64,000 nucleotides of DNA from an uncultured Acidobacteriota bacterium (GCA_963796275.1 CAWCKY010000003.1:1376001-1440000), one strand, 5' to 3'; counted from the stretch's first letter, positions 9,032 to 15,575 are shown. Program-made: numbers and translations. Notes: generated from the letters alone by a model not told the origin.

Positions 9032-10003
9032 CTAAGCTGCTTCGCTCTCCTCTTTTTCGTCCAGCTTGCCGATCAACCCATTCCACGGTGGAATGACGAT
9101 CGTCACATTTCCATAAGCCTTCATCTGGCAGGCCAGGCGGATCGGAGAGTCTTCTTTGCCGGTGAAGCCTTCATAGCCGAAATAGACCCAGCGGCCGATC
9201 TCACGTTCGCTGGGCGGCGAGACTTTCTCGGTCGGCGATAGCACTCCGACCCAGCACGTTCCGCAGGAAGAGGTGCGGCACTCCACGGGAATCGGTCCCT
9301 CACCGGCCATACATCGTTCGTCCCGCAGGTGATGATTACGCTTATCGAATGATGCGGCCATCGTCACATCCTGCATATTCACGATGCGGAAAGAAGAGCC
9401 GGGCTCGCATTCGCGGAAGTTTACGCTGAACTCTTTGTCGACGGTTTTGAGGAACCCTAAGATGCCCTGGCCGTCGTCCCGAAGGCGCTCTTCGACTATT
9501 TTATCGGGCGATTGCTTCCAATTCTTGCCGTAAGCTCCTGGCTGCGCCGGTTGTTTGAAGAGGTCCGTACCCACTTGTTGCAGGGTCGCGAACGCGACGG
9601 CAGTGATTCCCGTCAGCAGTGTTTCATCGGCTTTCACCTTCCCGGCGATGCGGCGCGCGACATCGCGAATCTGCGCGGCCAGCAGCAAATCAGCCGGCGG
9701 CCGGGCTGCGTGTTCGGCTACCTCGCGCTTGACGTCGGGCCAGTAGCGGTGGCCGTAAAGGAATTGGGCGGAAGAGTCAACCTGATCGGCCAGCCGATAT
9801 TTACCTTTGAGCAGAAGACTTTTTGCTTTCTCTTCAGGATCTGTCGCGAGCGCCCGATTAAGTTTGAGCGGAAAGAAGGCGAACCAGATGCACGTAGCTC
9901 GTCGATCTACCGGGTGGATCGAAAGCTCATCGATGGCCTTAATCCAATCGGCGTCGTTGTGTTGGTTGAGAAAATGAGAAAATTGATTCCCGTTGTTCGT
10001 CAT
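9032..10003 (-). CDS. 2Fe-2S ferredoxin domain fused to a large N-terminal domain of unknown function
   Basis: CRTSSCGTC (C-x4-C-x2-C) and RLACQ; about 200 aa unrecognised N-terminal part; ATG 10003 with RBS gagg. Confidence 0.8.
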   Translation of the reverse strand: MTNNGNQFSHFLNQHNDADWIKAIDELSIHPVDRRATCIWFAFFPLKLNRALATDPEEKAKSLLLKGKYRLADQVDSSAQFLYGHRYWPDVKREVAEHAARPPADLLLAAQIRDVARRIAGKVKADETLLTGITAVAFATLQQVGTDLFKQPAQPGAYGKNWKQSPDKIVEERLRDDGQGILGFLKTVDKEFSVNFRECEPGSSFRIVNMQDVTMAASFDKRNHHLRDERCMAGEGPIPVECRTSSCGTCWVGVLSPTEKVSPPSEREIGRWVYFGYEGFTGKEDSPIRLACQMKAYGNVTIVIPPWNGLIGKLDEKEESEAA

Positions 10004-10116
10004 TGCTGAACTGACCTCATTTTTTCTAAATGATATTCTATTCGGTGCAGGTAGAATTCGATGGTAAAGATAACCGGAGGACGCTACTTCGGCAAGAGAC
10101 ACGAGAGGAGAGAACG

Positions 10117-11055
10117 ATGAAGAGACAGACACCATTGGGAGAGCTTGAAATCTTGGATGCTCATACGCATTTCTTTTCGCGAAAATTTATCGAGACATTA
10201 ATTAGCCAGTCGCCCCAGTTATCGAGCGACGCAGACCCGATCGGTCGAGTTGAACAGATGACCGGATGGACGATGCCGCCGGGCGATCCGGCGGAGCTGG
10301 CTGCCATCTGGAAGGCGGAATTGGATAGGCACAATGTATCGGCGGCGATGATGATGGCGAGCGTGCCGGGCGACGAACGATCGGTCGCCGATGCGGTCGG
10401 CGCTTTCCCGGACCGGATCATCGGCGGATTCATGTTCGACCCGACGAAACCCGAAGCCGAATCGCGAGCGCGGCGTGCCTTCGATGAATCGAAGCTTCGC
10501 GTGGCCTGCCTCTTCCCGGCAATGCATCATTATTCGGTGGCGGAGAATGACGGGGCGCGAACCGTCGCCGCGCTCGCCGGGGAGCGGCCGGGCGCCGCGG
10601 TATTCGTTCATTGCGGAGTACTCTCGGTCGGGGCGCGCAAAAAATTGGGTCTGCCGAGCCATTTCGACATGAGGCGCTCAAATCCGCTGGATATCTATAA
10701 ATTGGCCGCGGAGTTTCCCAGGACGAGTTTCATCGTTCCGCACTTCGGGGCGGGGATGTTTCGCGAGACCCTGATGCTCGCAGACCTCTGCCCCAACGTT
10801 TATCTGGACACGTCGAGCACCAACAGTTGGATGAAGTACGAATCGATCGATCTCACGTCGGTGTTTAAACGCGCGTTGGCCGTCGCCGGTCACGAACGCC
10901 TGCTCTTCGGCACTGATTCTTCATTCTTCCCGCGCGGATGGAATGCTCAGGTGTTTGAAGCACAGGTAAAGGTTCTTGCAGAAATCGGATTGAGTAACGA
11001 ACAGGCGGCGAAGATATTCGGCGGCAACCTTCGACATTTGTTGAAGCTTCAATAA
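10117..11055 (+). CDS. Amidohydrolase_2-type TIM-barrel metallohydrolase
   Basis: DAHTH, VHCG, PHFGAG, YLDTS, LLFGTDS and IFGGN motifs. Confidence 0.88.
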
Positions 11056-11120: not shown

Positions 11121-12032
11121 TTATTTAAGCTTCAAACCTTCAATAAAATCGCGGTCTTTTGTGCCCGCGTGACAGACCAGGCAGGACTGCTGGCCGCGCT
11201 CCTCAAGCTCCGAGACGAGCGCATAGGTCAGCCCTCGATCGGACCAGGTGATGACTTTCAGCCCGTTGATCGAGTCATAATGGAATTTCAAACCCTTCGA
11301 TACAATCTCCTCGCCGCCCGATGGCATCGCCACCGAATTGGCCGTAACGACGAGCGTGATCGCGTTCTGCTTCATCTTGTAAGCGATGTATGCCGCATAG
11401 TCGTTGTTGAAAGCGACCAGACGCGCGCCTTCCAGCCGGTAGAGTTTCTCCTGTCCTGAAGATTCCTGATAGTTCGGCAGCTTCAAACTGAATGAGACTT
11501 TCCCGGAGAACCAATCGGATATCATCGAGGGCGATTCCGAAATGATCTCCAGCGGGAGCTGCCCGCGTAGCCGCCGCAGGTGCGTCTCGACCGCCATCAA
11601 TGCGATTTGCGAAGGGCGCGGCATGTGGGGCGATTCGTTGCTCAACCTATTAATTACCCAGAGACCTGCCAGCGTGAAGGTGAGTAGGATGATTGCCAAC
11701 GAAAGCAGGCGGATCGGGCTCAGGTGAAAGATCGAGGTTGTGCCGTGATTGAATGTGTGTTGAATTCTGCGACGAAGATTGTGCGGAGCGGTTATCTGTT
11801 CCGGAATGGAATCGAGCAGCTGCTCTATCCGCGCACGCGTCTCTGCCGGAGCCTGGTAAAGAGGTTGCATGTCGCGCACGAGTGCCAGAAGAAGCCGCTC
11901 CTGCTCGGATAGATCGCGGCAGGTCGGACAGTCTTGCAGATGAGCCTCGAACTCATCGCGCTCGCCGTTGCGCAACTCATCATCCAGATAGAACACCATC
12001 TGAGTGCGGATTTGATTGCACGAGTTAGCCAT
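11121..12032 (-). CDS. Membrane anti-sigma factor: N-terminal ZAS/zf-HC2 domain, one TM helix, C-terminal CxxCH motif
   Basis: YLDDEL...HLQDCPTC; TM LLSLAIILLTFTLAGLWVI; CLVCH at 11169-11183; RBS ggagag before ATG 12032. Confidence 0.88.
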   Translation of the reverse strand: MANSCNQIRTQMVFYLDDELRNGERDEFEAHLQDCPTCRDLSEQERLLLALVRDMQPLYQAPAETRARIEQLLDSIPEQITAPHNLRRRIQHTFNHGTTSIFHLSPIRLLSLAIILLTFTLAGLWVINRLSNESPHMPRPSQIALMAVETHLRRLRGQLPLEIISESPSMISDWFSGKVSFSLKLPNYQESSGQEKLYRLEGARLVAFNNDYAAYIAYKMKQNAITLVVTANSVAMPSGGEEIVSKGLKFHYDSINGLKVITWSDRGLTYALVSELEERGQQSCLVCHAGTKDRDFIEGLKLK

Positions 12033-12048
12033 CTCTCCAGTCCTTAAT

Positions 12049-12600
12049 TCATTTGGTCGACGGGCCGGGTTGCCATTGGACGAGCAGCGTTCGCAGATTT
12101 TCCCTGGCACGTCCGAGCCGCGACATCACAGTCCCGGCCGGGCACTCCAGGATGCTGGCGATCTGCTGATAGCTGAATCCCTCGATATCGCGCAGCACGA
12201 CCACCTCGCGGTAATGGACCGGCAATCGTTCAATAGCAAGGCGCACCTGCTCGCGCTCCACTTTTTGCAGTAAAACGGTGTGCGGATCGCCCGCCGTGTG
12301 ATCCAACCACTGCCAGCGGCTCTCCTCCTCGGCATCGATTTCAACAAATTGCGGCCCGCTTCTGTCGTGACGCACCTGGTTGAGCCTGATATTGCGCATG
12401 ATCGCGAAGAGCCAGCTCTTCAAATTGCTGTCGGGCACGAGACGGCCGAAAGCGCGAGAAGCTCGCAGATAGGTCTCCTGCACTAGGTCCTCCGCTTCAT
12501 CTCGGTTGCGCGTCAGTACCATGGCGAATCCGTAGAGCGCATCGAGGTGCTCCAAAGCCGCCTGCTTGAAATTCATGACGCTTTCATCCGATCTATTCAT
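12049..12600 (-). CDS. ECF RNA polymerase sigma-70 factor (SigR/SigH-like)
   Basis: AEDLVQETYLRA, KSWLFAIMRN and SYQQIASILECPAGTVMSRLGRAR. Confidence 0.93.
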   Translation of the reverse strand: MNRSDESVMNFKQAALEHLDALYGFAMVLTRNRDEAEDLVQETYLRASRAFGRLVPDSNLKSWLFAIMRNIRLNQVRHDRSGPQFVEIDAEEESRWQWLDHTAGDPHTVLLQKVEREQVRLAIERLPVHYREVVVLRDIEGFSYQQIASILECPAGTVMSRLGRARENLRTLLVQWQPGPSTK

Positions 12601-12640
12601 AGATCTATCCCATACGCGATATAAATCCGAATAAAAGAAT

Positions 12641-12665
12641 AACACGCAAGTACGGAAAATATTCC
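12641..12665 (-). promoter_or_regulatory. Putative ECF promoter (GGAAT-N17-GTT), possibly autoregulatory
   Basis: Minus strand GGAATattttccgtacttgcgtGTT, about 40 nt upstream of the sigma ATG; matches the SigR/SigH-type consensus. Confidence 0.6.
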
Positions 12666-12811
12666 AAGCGGAAAATGTAATTTCCCGGCCGGTTATGGTC
12701 TTTGAGAAATAAATACAACGACGGATTGCGACCCATTCCACCGAAGGCAATCGGTGGGATTTAATAACTCCCCTGTTAAACGCGTGTTAAAAACGACTGT
12801 TAGATGTCTTT

Positions 12812-13822
12812 TTAGAGGTCCTTCAGCCCCACACTGACTGCCTTCGCTGGGTCACCCGACTTCAGGAAAGAAACCAGATCGAGCAACTGCTTGAGCGAAT
12901 ACCTGGCGGCATAATCTCCGGGCATCGCCGAGGTACTCAGCTTTTCGGTTTTCAATATTTCCGCTTTTACGAACGCGCGCGAAACCGGCGGCAGAGTGGA
13001 CGTATCGTAGAGCCGGACAATCTTTTCATCTTCATCTCTCTTGACACCGATGAATCGCGCACCGTCGCGCATCGTGATGGCGATCGTCGCGTATTTATCG
13101 GCAATGACCGCATGGGGCGCGGCGATGCTTTGCAGAATATCGCGCGCCGGTTTATTGGCGATGTTGCTCAGATCCGGCCCGATTTTGCCCCCGATGCCGC
13201 CAACTGTGTGGCATACACGGCAGTTTTGGGTCTGCGTGGCATCGAAAAACAGCTCTCTTCCTGCCGATGCATCTCCTCGTAGATCGGATGAATCACTGTT
13301 CACCGCTACTGTCTTATCCGTAACGGCTTTCTCAGGCTGATCTTTGGGACTTCCGCCGCTAAAATGCGGGTCGACGGGTGATGGTCGATTGTCTGCGCGC
13401 GCTTTCGTGTCGTTGGGCGAAAGCGAGATAACATAAGCGACTATTTGGGCGACCTGATCTTCCGTATAGCTCTTTTTGAATCCCGGCATCGTCGTGCCGG
13501 GGATCCCGTCATTGATCAGATGCGTCAGTAGTTCGGCGGTGAACTCGCGGTCTTTAAGTTTAGGGCCGCCGCCGCCGCTGCCCCCGCTTCCGTGGCAGTA
13601 GCTGTTGCTGCATGAGCTCGCAAACAGCCGGCGCCCGGCTTCGATTTGTGATTTATTATCTTGTAAATTTGTCGCGAATGAATTTGTCGCGAAAAAAGCG
13701 GAAGGATTCGCCACCGAGATCGCGAAAAAGCAAAAAGTCGCAATAGCTACACAAGCTATTTTTCGTTTTCTGGCCTTTTCTCTCGTTGATTTATGGTTGA
13801 TTGTACTGTGCCTATCTTGCAT
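12812..13822 (-). CDS. Exported or membrane-anchored c-type cytochrome with two heme domains
   Basis: CSNSYCH (CX4CH) followed by GPKL..MPGF; CRVCH followed by GPDLS..SAMP; hydrophobic N-terminal segment. Confidence 0.85.
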   Translation of the reverse strand: MQDRHSTINHKSTREKARKRKIACVAIATFCFFAISVANPSAFFATNSFATNLQDNKSQIEAGRRLFASSCSNSYCHGSGGSGGGGPKLKDREFTAELLTHLINDGIPGTTMPGFKKSYTEDQVAQIVAYVISLSPNDTKARADNRPSPVDPHFSGGSPKDQPEKAVTDKTVAVNSDSSDLRGDASAGRELFFDATQTQNCRVCHTVGGIGGKIGPDLSNIANKPARDILQSIAAPHAVIADKYATIAITMRDGARFIGVKRDEDEKIVRLYDTSTLPPVSRAFVKAEILKTEKLSTSAMPGDYAARYSLKQLLDLVSFLKSGDPAKAVSVGLKDL

Positions 13823-15575
13823 TTTCCGTCACCCCTTTGCTGTTCTTGCCGGCGGTTTCAGGCAGAGCGAAGACGAACAGTGTCGAGGTCGCTTCGGGAA
13901 GTTTATCTGCCGTTTCCGGCCAGATGACCGGGATCGCACCGCCCAGCAGCGAACCCATTCCGGTTGGGATGGCGATGTACTGCCGGCCATTCACGGCATA
14001 ACTTATGGGTGAGCCGCTGATGCCGCCGCCCGTATAATGCGACCATAAATGCTCGCCTGTCTTCGCATCGAGTGCGAATGCGTTCCCTTCGACATCTCCG
14101 GTGAAGAGCAGGTCGCTTCCAGTGACGAGCAGCGAGCCCAAATTTGCATATTTAGTGCGGTATCGCCACAGCTGTTTGCCGGTCAACGGATCGTAGCCAT
14201 CTATGTGACCGTATGGCCTCGTATCTTTCGGAGGCTTGAATTCGACCCCGCCCCCGAATAAGACCTGACCCTCTTTGATTTCCTGTTTCTCGGGTTTGAT
14301 GATGTTACAAAATTCCCAGCCGATGTTGTACCAGATCTTCGTCCGCGGACTGTATGCCGAGTGATCCCAATTCCGACCGCCGCAGATGCTGGGACAGACG
14401 AATGTCTCACCATCCGGCGGCACCGGCAGCATCCCCACAGGCTTGCCGTTCTTATCAACCCCCTTCAACCAATTGATGTTGTCGACGTGTTTGTATGCGT
14501 TGAGGTATTTGCCGGTTTCGCGATCGAGCACCCACGTCATCCCGCCTTTGTTGGGATGTACGAGCAGCTTCTGCTTCCTGCCTTCACGCTCGTAATCGAT
14601 CAGGACGCATTCGAATGAGGAATCGAAATCATAGAGATCGTGCGGGATCTCTTGATAGTACCATTTCAGTTTTCCGGTGTCGGGATCGAGCGCGATGATT
14701 GAATTGGTATAAAGGTTATCGCCTTTGCGAAATTCACCGTAAAAATCCGACGAGGGATTGCCGACTCCCCAGTAGAGCAGGTTCAGCTCCGGGTCGTATG
14801 ACCCCGTGAGCCAGGTCGGGGCGCCGCCGTACTTCCACATCTTTTCGCCCCATGTCTCGAATCCCGGCTCGCCCGGTCCGGGGATCGTGTAAAAGCGCCA
14901 GAGGTGTTTCCCCGTCTTCGCATCGAAGGCGTTGAGATAACCGCGATGCGAGTGTTCGCCCCCGGTGACGCCGGTAATCACCTTGTCTTTAACGACCAGC
15001 GGCGGAGAGGTGATGTTGCAGCCGCATTGGCGTACGTCTTCGACCTCGATGTCCCACAACTCGCGCCCAGTCTTCATGTCGAGCGCGACGACGTGATTAT
15101 CGACCGTGCCGAAGTAGACCATCCCGTGACCGATCGCCAGACCGCGCGAACCGCGCTGATAAGGAATCGACATCTCCGGCAGCTTGTAAAAGTATTTCCA
15201 GATAACTTTTCCGGTTTCAGCATTGATCGCGAAAATCCGGTTCATCGGTCCCATCAGATAGATGACACCATCCATAACCAGGGGCGTCGCATTCAACCCC
15301 CCACGCAGCTCCCCGGTATGGAATGTCCATATCGGTACGAGATTCTTGATGTTTTCGCGCGTGATCTGATTGAGGGCGCTGTATCGCCATGCGCTGTAAT
15401 TACCTCCATAGGTCATCCAGTTTTGCGGCTCGCTGTCAGAGCCGATCAGTCTTGACCATGTCGGTTCTTGTGCCAGGCAGGGGAACGATACGGAGGCAAT
15501 AAGAAAGACTAAATTGGTAAGCCCCGAGAGCCGCAACCCCGGTTGACACTGAGACTTTATACCACGCGATTTCAT
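13812..15575 (-). CDS. PQQ-dependent dehydrogenase (alcohol/methanol dehydrogenase-like beta-propeller)
   Basis: Repeated AxDxxTGKxxW motifs, ATPLV, GVGNP, HDLYDFD and GGRNW; signal peptide. Confidence 0.92.
   Translation of the reverse strand: MKSRGIKSQCQPGLRLSGLTNLVFLIASVSFPCLAQEPTWSRLIGSDSEPQNWMTYGGNYSAWRYSALNQITRENIKNLVPIWTFHTGELRGGLNATPLVMDGVIYLMGPMNRIFAINAETGKVIWKYFYKLPEMSIPYQRGSRGLAIGHGMVYFGTVDNHVVALDMKTGRELWDIEVEDVRQCGCNITSPPLVVKDKVITGVTGGEHSHRGYLNAFDAKTGKHLWRFYTIPGPGEPGFETWGEKMWKYGGAPTWLTGSYDPELNLLYWGVGNPSSDFYGEFRKGDNLYTNSIIALDPDTGKLKWYYQEIPHDLYDFDSSFECVLIDYEREGRKQKLLVHPNKGGMTWVLDRETGKYLNAYKHVDNINWLKGVDKNGKPVGMLPVPPDGETFVCPSICGGRNWDHSAYSPRTKIWYNIGWEFCNIIKPEKQEIKEGQVLFGGGVEFKPPKDTRPYGHIDGYDPLTGKQLWRYRTKYANLGSLLVTGSDLLFTGDVEGNAFALDAKTGEHLWSHYTGGGISGSPISYAVNGRQYIAIPTGMGSLLGGAIPVIWPETADKLPEATSTLFVFALPETAGKNSKGVTENAR

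Follow-up and report, generated by a model that had tools for sequence, protein, structure and literature searches.

A candidate heme c-bearing anti-sigma factor of Acidobacteriota, paired with a SigH/SigR-like ECF sigma factor and found beside periplasmic heme peroxidases in related genomes

In this study, a sigma/anti-sigma gene pair has been analysed in a window of 64,000 nucleotides (CAWCKY010000003.1:1376001-1440000) from the genome of an uncultured soil bacterium of the Acidobacteriota (GCA_963796275.1). The sigma factor belongs to the extracytoplasmic function (ECF) type, and its partner combines a zinc-binding anti-sigma (ZAS) domain, one transmembrane helix and a predicted periplasmic domain with a CxxCH motif at its C-terminal end. 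In related genomes the pair is mostly found beside periplasmic heme peroxidases which share its promoter. The overall best explanation, which we hold with moderate confidence, is that the pair forms a SigH/SigR-like ECF system in which a heme carried on a non-cytochrome fold serves to sense peroxide or redox state in the periplasm. The anti-sigma factor is thus probably a new kind of peroxide sensor.

The anti-sigma factor of 303 amino acids is encoded by an open reading frame at 11121-12032 on the minus strand, with a zf-HC2 match of E 1.8e-9. Its ATG at 12032 is preceded by an AAGGA/GGAG ribosome-binding site and lies 16 nt from the sigma stop codon. A GTG at 12110 was also considered as the start, and the ATG with its ribosome-binding site was found to be the most likely one instead. 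Residues are numbered here from this ATG; the numbers in the alignments A1 and A2 and in the structural model run one higher. The ZAS motif HLQDCPTC (H31-x3-C35-x2-C38; 11919-11942, minus strand) lies inside the zf-HC2 match (PF13490, 38 bits against a cut-off of 22.2), and together with Cys5 upstream it gives the RsrA-like spacing Cys5...H31-x3-C35-x2-C38. Its H, C and C are each at least 90% conserved in A1, an alignment of 74 sequences. The RsrA model TIGR03988 reached 46.7 bits, which is under its cut-off of 62.5. A single transmembrane helix follows at about residues 106-132 (11637-11717, minus strand), this being the only Kyte-Doolittle segment above 1.6 and one continuous helix (107-133 in model numbering) in the predicted structure. 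The ZAS motif and the one transmembrane helix described in the first-pass annotation are both present. The remaining part, residues 139-303 (11124-11618, minus strand), forms the predicted periplasmic sensor domain of about 165 residues with two helices, a seven-stranded antiparallel sheet and a C-terminal tail.

The protein is predicted to be oriented with its N-terminus inside and its C-terminus outside, since the anti-sigma domain must bind the cytoplasmic sigma factor and there is one transmembrane helix; the CxxCH motif would hence lie outside the cytoplasm, in agreement with the topology proposed earlier. The HxxxCxxC motif in an N-terminal helical domain and the position of the gene directly 3' of an ECF sigma gene place the protein among the class I ZAS (zf-HC2) anti-sigma factors. 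It is single-copy in the 9.46-Mb genome, and some sources label its homologs as 'anti-sigma factor RsiW'. Some family members (L012 on G147:C23, P0155, P0164, P0187, P0207 and P0223) are 350-380 amino acids long and carry an N-terminal extension with a second HxxxCxxC or CxxC before the usual ZAS domain.

The putative covalent heme c site is CLVCH (Cys284, Cys287 and His288; 11183-11169, minus strand), located 15 residues from the C-terminus. Conservation of this motif in homologs had been set beforehand as a test by which the heme proposal could fail, and the motif held. CxxCH was found at the same place in all 120 close homologs listed, which are 57-94% identical and for the most part carry the label Blastocatellia or Acidobacteriota. 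When the periplasmic domain alone was searched against 1.84 billion cluster representatives, 628 matches were obtained at E<=0.001; among the best 150 of these, reaching down to about 27% identity, CxxCH was in register in 134 of the 136 alignments covering the site. The two exceptions are one-residue changes (RVVCH and CLVCR), and the remaining 14 of the 150 are fragments or have broken tails. The members of A1 are full-length, were chosen by length and all carry CxxCH; the only invariant columns of this alignment are one Gly and the C, C and H of the motif. Both x positions are freely variable, and the tail after the motif has a median length of 17 residues. The periplasmic domain and CxxCH are the most conserved parts of the anti-sigma factor. 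Distant relatives (21-30% identity) keep the fold-defining residues of the domain (His151 and Trp, Phe, Pro, Gly and Tyr residues), and they have a helix at the end instead of CxxCH; the motif is therefore a gain that defines the clade. Beside the motif, the one clade-specific change seen is Ala147, one helical turn before His151 in the helix 142-155, where Leu or Ile is present in 6 of 6 heme-less sequences. It gives a hint that the heme may pack there.

The genome also appears equipped for attaching heme to such a motif. Matches above cut-off for ResB (PF05140) and for a CcsA-type protein (PF01578) were found on its contigs C4 and C6, and by these matches it encodes the System II cytochrome c maturation pathway, which makes covalent heme c on the anti-sigma factor likely. 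The features expected of a c-type protein are thus found together, namely the CxxCH motif, its predicted extracytoplasmic side and a maturation system in the same genome. From these sequence features we infer that covalent heme c on CLVCH is the likely state of the protein, and this is the most economical reading of the motif.

An AlphaFold2 model of the anti-sigma factor was built on 74 homologs and has a mean predicted local distance difference test score (pLDDT) of 89.7. The order of elements in the model is four to five cytoplasmic helices, the long 107-133 helix, two helices, the seven-stranded sheet, a short helix bearing CxxCH and a terminal helix. In structural alignments the N-terminal domain matched the anti-sigma domains of RsiW, MucA and RslA (Z 6.5-7.2) and of RskA and RseA, with Z values of 5-7.2 overall; RsiW (5wuq_C, Z 7.2) was the best fold match. 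In case of the periplasmic domain, no Pfam or NCBIfam family was matched at E<=0.01, including the cytochrome, DUF3365, PAS and Cache families, and a search of the anti-sigma sequence against the solved structures in the PDB gave no match. No DUF1109 match was found in the anti-sigma factor either, which has one transmembrane helix and not six. Compared by structure, the periplasmic domain resembled TM1622, the MucB and RseB C-terminal domains, Tsi3, PsbP and Mog1-like proteins only weakly (Z 4-7). The matches resembling the RseB/MucB C-terminal domain or Mog1/PsbP (Z 5.9-7.1, root-mean-square deviation 2.8-4.1 over 87-104 residues) are below the level at which a shared fold could safely be assumed, and Foldseek gave no match at E<=0.001 (matches at E>=0.004). 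The fold-search listings contained no cytochrome, Cache or PAS fold, which is weak on its own. As judged from the family searches and the model, the periplasmic domain is not a cytochrome fold. No fused or longer form of the domain scored at lengths of 533-2000 amino acids, which is weak evidence.

The sigma factor (183 amino acids; 12049-12600, minus strand) contains only regions 2 and 4 (Sigma70_r2, PF04542, and Sigma70_r4_2, PF08281) and is therefore an ECF (group IV) sigma-70 factor, with a TIGR02937 score of 106.3 bits against a cut-off of 42.9. Among solved structures it is closest to SigH of M. tuberculosis (E 9.7e-29), and it stays under the curated SigH/SigR equivalog cut-offs (TIGR02947, 130.3 against 251.55; PRK12533, 142.7 against 248). 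It was found directly upstream of the anti-sigma gene in 47 of the 49 loci examined. About 40 nt upstream of the sigma ATG lies GGAATATTTTCCGTACTTGCGTGTT (12665-12641, minus strand), an exact match to the autoregulatory ECF promoter pattern GGAAT-N15-GTGTT, with GGAAT as the -35 and GTGTT as the -10 element. The same 25-nt pattern is present 5' of the sigma gene in 57 of 69 related loci, and its chance expectation in a 450-nt stretch is about 4 in 10,000. The GGAAT...GTT element noted in the first-pass annotation is thus a real and conserved ECF promoter. It resembles the SigR/SigH promoter consensus, GGAAT-N18-GTT. In one relative (L034:2601-3874) a second sigma/anti-sigma pair is present 6 kb upstream of the CxxCH pair; its sigma factor is 41% and its anti-sigma factor 25% identical, and it is a paralog from the broader family.

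Of 401 genomes taken from across the phylum, 24 carry the domain; in a sample of 401 from the class it is present in 90, which represent 42 of 88 genera and usually have one copy each. Gene neighbourhoods were compared in sets of 19 loci, 40 more, and 80 from species-representative genomes found by a search with a 27-sequence alignment, the last set overlapping the others. From the 80 loci, 69 were evaluable (10 were dropped for having less than 1.5 kb upstream and 1 because no sigma gene was seen); beside the 46 relatives counted in the smaller sets, two further loci were truncated in such a way that their sigma gene was not seen. A heme peroxidase is located immediately upstream of the sigma gene and divergent from it in 32 of the 46 relatives and in 47 of the 69 evaluable loci. 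Three kinds of protein make up these counts: catalase-peroxidase (KatG) with a signal peptide (9/46 and 9/69), a di-heme cytochrome c peroxidase (CCP) whose gene is followed by those of a metallophosphoesterase and a SoxA-like cytochrome (10/46 and 10/69), and a di-heme protein of about 470 amino acids resembling CCP and MauG (13/46 and 28/69). The C-terminal half of the last protein is related to CCP/MauG (BLASTP 1e-10 to 1e-14; CCP structures in the PDB, 7e-8 to 9e-4). The other divergent genes encode an sGDH-like protein (3/46 and 8/69), a metallophosphoesterase (1/46 and 1/69) or an esterase (1/46 and 1/69), or match none of the reference proteins (9/46 and 12/69). The linkage of homologs to redox genes that had been expected at the outset therefore holds for periplasmic heme peroxidases and not for a PQQ (pyrroloquinoline quinone) dehydrogenase and cytochrome c, the pair that precedes the sigma gene in the window. 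Because of this peroxidase linkage the broader notion survives that redox state or oxidants are sensed in the periplasm by means of heme, with a partner and a likely signal different from those first claimed.

Most of the peroxidase genes share the promoter of the sigma gene. In 49 of the 69 loci GGAAT-N15-GTGTT occurs on the opposite strand and points at the divergent gene; when the -10 element is relaxed slightly, 29 of the 32 peroxidase loci of the 46-relative set have the motif facing the peroxidase (KatG 9/9, CCP 7/10 and the CCP-like protein 13/13). In the genome studied here, GGAATAAAACCTCTATTAGAGTGTT was identified at C2:231998 (minus strand; C2:231974-231998), 251 nt upstream of a gene for a 742-amino acid KatG with a signal peptide (C2:229494-231722), and the motif that faces KatG in a relative (L059) is nearly the same. 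Next to this promoter (C2:229494-234099, locus L169) there is a degenerate copy of the sigma-facing promoter, GGAATAATCC...GTTGT, together with an rve integrase-core fragment. The integrase fragment and the degenerate copy beside katG point to a rearrangement, possibly mediated by an insertion sequence. This arrangement suggests that the rearrangement may have split the sigma/anti-sigma pair from katG and placed the pair behind the dehydrogenase/cytochrome operon. For the orthologs of the CCP, CCP-like and sGDH-like genes that this genome contains, no copy of the motif was found within 600 nt.

Several variants of the divergent neighbour were seen among the relatives. Ten loci, among them L032:5375-8673 and L037:5663-8681 with 8 more, have a conserved three-gene operon divergent from the sigma gene, encoding a di-heme CCP/MauG-family protein, a calcineurin-like metallophosphoesterase and a SoxA/TsdA-like cytochrome c. 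In the 8 of 69 loci with the sGDH-like neighbour (L036:2298-3626, L082 and L085 among them; a subgroup labelled Pyrinomonadaceae), the promoter-bearing divergent gene encodes a 443-amino acid protein with a weak match to glucose/sorbosone dehydrogenase (PF07995, E 3e-6) or to ScyE-like proteins, and without CxxCH. At L137:1177-3126 the gene divergent from sigma codes for a LodA-like L-lysine epsilon-oxidase, a quinoprotein that produces H2O2, and the strict promoter motif was not found at this locus.

The following mechanism may be proposed for the system. The cytoplasmic ZAS domain of the anti-sigma factor would hold the SigH/SigR-like sigma factor, the pair being autoregulated, and the System II pathway would load covalent heme c on the C-terminal CxxCH of the periplasmic domain. 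Periplasmic H2O2, or a related oxidant or redox change, may then react with this heme, which could be exposed like that of a microperoxidase, and the reaction would alter or destabilise the periplasmic domain. As a result the anti-sigma factor may lose its activity through a conformational change or regulated proteolysis, and the released sigma factor would induce the peroxidase and itself. As its conserved output the system would drive, from the GGAAT-N15-GTGTT promoter that the sigma gene also has, a heme enzyme that removes peroxide in the periplasm: secreted KatG, a CCP/MauG-like di-heme protein or the operon of a di-heme CCP. In this genome katG keeps its promoter on another contig, and the pair now lies downstream of an unrelated dehydrogenase/cytochrome operon. 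In its most specific form the proposal describes the first natural anti-sigma factor with covalent heme, in which a microperoxidase-like heme c on the C-terminal tail of a non-cytochrome periplasmic fold reacts with H2O2 and induces KatG or CCP through the ECF sigma factor; in this form it is tentative, possible rather than probable.

The dehydrogenase and cytochrome genes of the window stand upstream of the sigma gene on the same strand, and all four genes are co-oriented on the minus strand as described in the first-pass annotation. The PQQ-dependent alcohol dehydrogenase of the methanol/ethanol family (13812-15575, minus strand) was identified by PF01011 (E 1e-95) and TIGR03075 (534 bits against a cut-off of 480). 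Its closest solved relatives are the quinoprotein ethanol dehydrogenases 6zcv and 6zcw (E 1e-102 to 1e-104), to whose HDGWDFD segment its HDLYDFD sequence aligns; this D-x-D is a mark of lanthanide-dependent enzymes. The NCBIfam 'acido-empty-quinoprotein' model scored 443 on it, against a cut-off of 650. The cytochrome c (336 amino acids; 12812-13822, minus strand; Cytochrome_CBB3 E 4.6e-19; TIGR02603 86.8 bits, above cut-off) is membrane-anchored or secreted. It has two heme sites as stated earlier; the second is CRVCH, but the first is CSNSYCH (13594-13614, minus strand), a CX4CH of unusual spacing and not CxxCH, and a Gly/Ser-rich stretch, GSGGSGGGG, comes after it. The interval between the cytochrome c and sigma genes contains no terminator-like site, so that incidental read-through into the sigma gene is possible. 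On the 3' side of the anti-sigma gene there are genes for a 2Fe-2S ferredoxin-domain protein (9032-10135, weak Fer2 match) and an Amidohydro_2 protein (10030-11055), which overlap head-to-head and are not kept beside the sigma/anti-sigma pair in relatives.

This arrangement had led to the proposal that the heme c anti-sigma factor responds to the neighbouring PQQ dehydrogenase and cytochrome c, whose electron flow or substrate signal it would read, and regulates accordingly. The co-orientation and close spacing of the four genes and the possible read-through are in line with it, as is the sGDH-like protein, a member of another PQQ-type family (weak PF07995), divergent from the sigma gene in 8 of 69 loci. 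However, the PQQ alcohol dehydrogenase and its cytochrome c were found beside the pair in 0/19, 0/46 and 0/69 evaluable loci of the overlapping sets, which include two genomes of the same genus (L049 and L050), and the motif scan found no ECF-type promoter upstream of the dehydrogenase. Moreover, three other pairs of PQQ dehydrogenase and cytochrome in the same genome have no such anti-sigma factor, and the integrase fragment beside the orphaned katG promoter points to a rearrangement. On account of the synteny and promoter evidence the functional coupling to these neighbours was rejected, and we regard it as very improbable. Two other explanations were considered. The CxxCH may be heme-free and serve as a periplasmic thiol-disulfide switch or as a Cys2-His(2) metal site, possibly with His151, which senses oxidants or metal. 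Redox and zinc centres are classically formed by CxxC motifs, His151 varies hardly at all, the fold is not that of a cytochrome, only about 17 residues follow the motif, and a peroxidase regulon would fit a thiol-based oxidant sensor equally well. On the other hand, the His after the second Cys is as invariant as the cysteines (134/136), which marks heme c attachment and sets the motif apart from those of CxxC oxidoreductases. The maturation system of the genome could load an exported CxxCH, and exported peptides of this kind are readily loaded with heme by such systems. His151 is kept in relatives without CxxCH and is hence not a ligand partner specific to the motif. A heme-free site is considered unlikely.

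Sensing may instead take place in the cytoplasm, by an RsrA/RshA-like ZAS domain through zinc release and disulfide formation, the periplasmic heme being a second input (nitric oxide, O2, or heme/iron availability) or a control of stability. The RsrA-like cysteine and histidine spacing with its partial RsrA model match (46.7 bits), the closeness of the sigma factor to SigH and the likeness of the promoter to the SigR/SigH consensus speak for this explanation, and heme-c Cache sensors behaved as nitric oxide sensors in a 2026 preprint (PMC12889525). It is nevertheless doubtful, since RsrA and RshA are soluble and need no membrane domain, the periplasmic domain and CxxCH are here the most conserved parts, and the regulated enzymes act in the periplasm (KatG with a signal peptide, and the periplasmic CCP). 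The explanation by a periplasmic heme has to be held against several observations as well. The oxidant could in reality be sensed by the RsrA-like ZAS motif. No residue peculiar to the CxxCH clade emerged as a distal (sixth) heme ligand, and His151 is also kept in relatives without the motif. A total of 22 of the 69 loci have a non-peroxidase neighbour (sGDH-like 8, other 12, metallophosphoesterase 1, esterase 1), and the 12 unmatched ones are heterogeneous, including a subtilase, a LysR regulator, a transposase, an ABC protein and one LodA-like lysine oxidase. The loose promoter pattern occurs at 38 sites genome-wide against about 33 expected, which is no enrichment; the genome-wide scan is thus uninformative, and the regulon assignment in this genome rests on one well-placed site. 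Finally, the compared genomes are kin and the locus sets overlap, so that the counts overstate independence. With these points included, the sensing of periplasmic peroxide or redox state through heme is still the explanation that we favour.

Bacterial peroxide sensing is known almost entirely from the cytoplasmic regulators OxyR, PerR and OhrR and from soluble ZAS anti-sigma factors. To our knowledge, the detection of peroxide in the periplasm, where CCPs and secreted catalase-peroxidases act, is largely unknown. The family described here is a concrete and testable candidate, in which the 165-residue domain, its three invariant residues, the promoter and the output gene are all defined. If the favoured explanation is true, ECF sigma factors would become a new output class for the small set of extracytoplasmic heme-c sensors, and a second example of a sensor fold gaining a CxxCH fragment would be provided. 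It would also mean that Acidobacteriota, an abundant and poorly studied soil phylum, have dedicated periplasm-facing peroxide sensing apart from the cytoplasmic OxyR/PerR paradigm. The sigma, anti-sigma and promoter trio could also serve as an orthogonal oxidant-responsive switch.

Full-text literature searches found no description of a heme-binding or CxxCH anti-sigma factor. The word 'heme' has no occurrence in the available main text of the 2021 ECF reclassification paper (PMC7826278), whose supplementary tables might list such a group. Among the known systems, RsrA-SigR of Streptomyces and RshA-SigH of Mycobacterium (ECF12-type, thiol-oxidative stress) are alike in the SigH-like sigma factor, the C...HxxxCxxC ZAS motif and the oxidative-stress type of output, and, going by the SigR/SigH consensus, also in the autoregulated GGAAT...GTT promoter. 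RsrA and RshA are small and soluble, whereas the present protein is membrane-anchored with a 165-residue periplasmic domain and CxxCH, and the curated RsrA and SigR cut-offs are missed here (TIGR03988, 46.7 against 62.5; TIGR02947, 130 against 251). The outputs differ too, being periplasmic heme peroxidases in our case and thioredoxin-type genes in the case of RsrA-SigR and RshA-SigH. RsiW-SigW of Bacillus and other single-pass ZAS anti-sigma factors (COG5662) have the same cytoplasmic ZAS domain, one transmembrane helix and an extracytoplasmic domain. Here, in contrast to RsiW, the extracytoplasmic domain has no sequence match to solved chains and the clade is defined by CxxCH; we know of no heme motif in RsiW. 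OsrA-EcfF of Bradyrhizobium and NrsF-SigF of Caulobacter follow the same logic, in which a membrane anti-sigma factor frees an autoregulated ECF sigma factor on exposure to oxidant. The periplasm-exposed Cys179 of OsrA mediates the H2O2 response, and OsrA and NrsF are six-transmembrane DUF1109 proteins without ZAS or heme (PMC3420878). OsrA was considered as a possible homolog of the periplasmic domain, and this was rejected on account of its six-transmembrane DUF1109 character (PMC3420878). OsrA and NrsF are not homologous to the anti-sigma factor studied here, and it is methionine sulfoxide reductases, rather than KatG or CCP, that stand at the centre of their regulons.

Other sensors are comparable in the place or in the chemistry of sensing. 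The Geobacter chemoreceptors GSU0582 and GSU0935 reportedly have periplasmic heme-c sensor domains of PAS-like type. The sCache_heme family (DUF3365) has a CxxCH fragment inserted into a Cache fold (PMC12889525). The heme-c chemoreceptor and kinase sensors and sCache_heme are likewise extracytoplasmic non-cytochrome folds with a single family-defining CxxCH. The Geobacter and sCache_heme domains have PAS or Cache folds, with methyl-accepting chemotaxis protein, kinase or stand-alone outputs, whereas the present domain gave no DUF3365, PAS or Cache match and has an ECF sigma factor as its predicted output. OxyR and PerR, which are cytoplasmic one-component sensors, regulate the same enzymes, catalase-peroxidase and cytochrome c peroxidase. 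Unlike them, the predicted sensor described here faces the periplasm and would act through a sigma factor.

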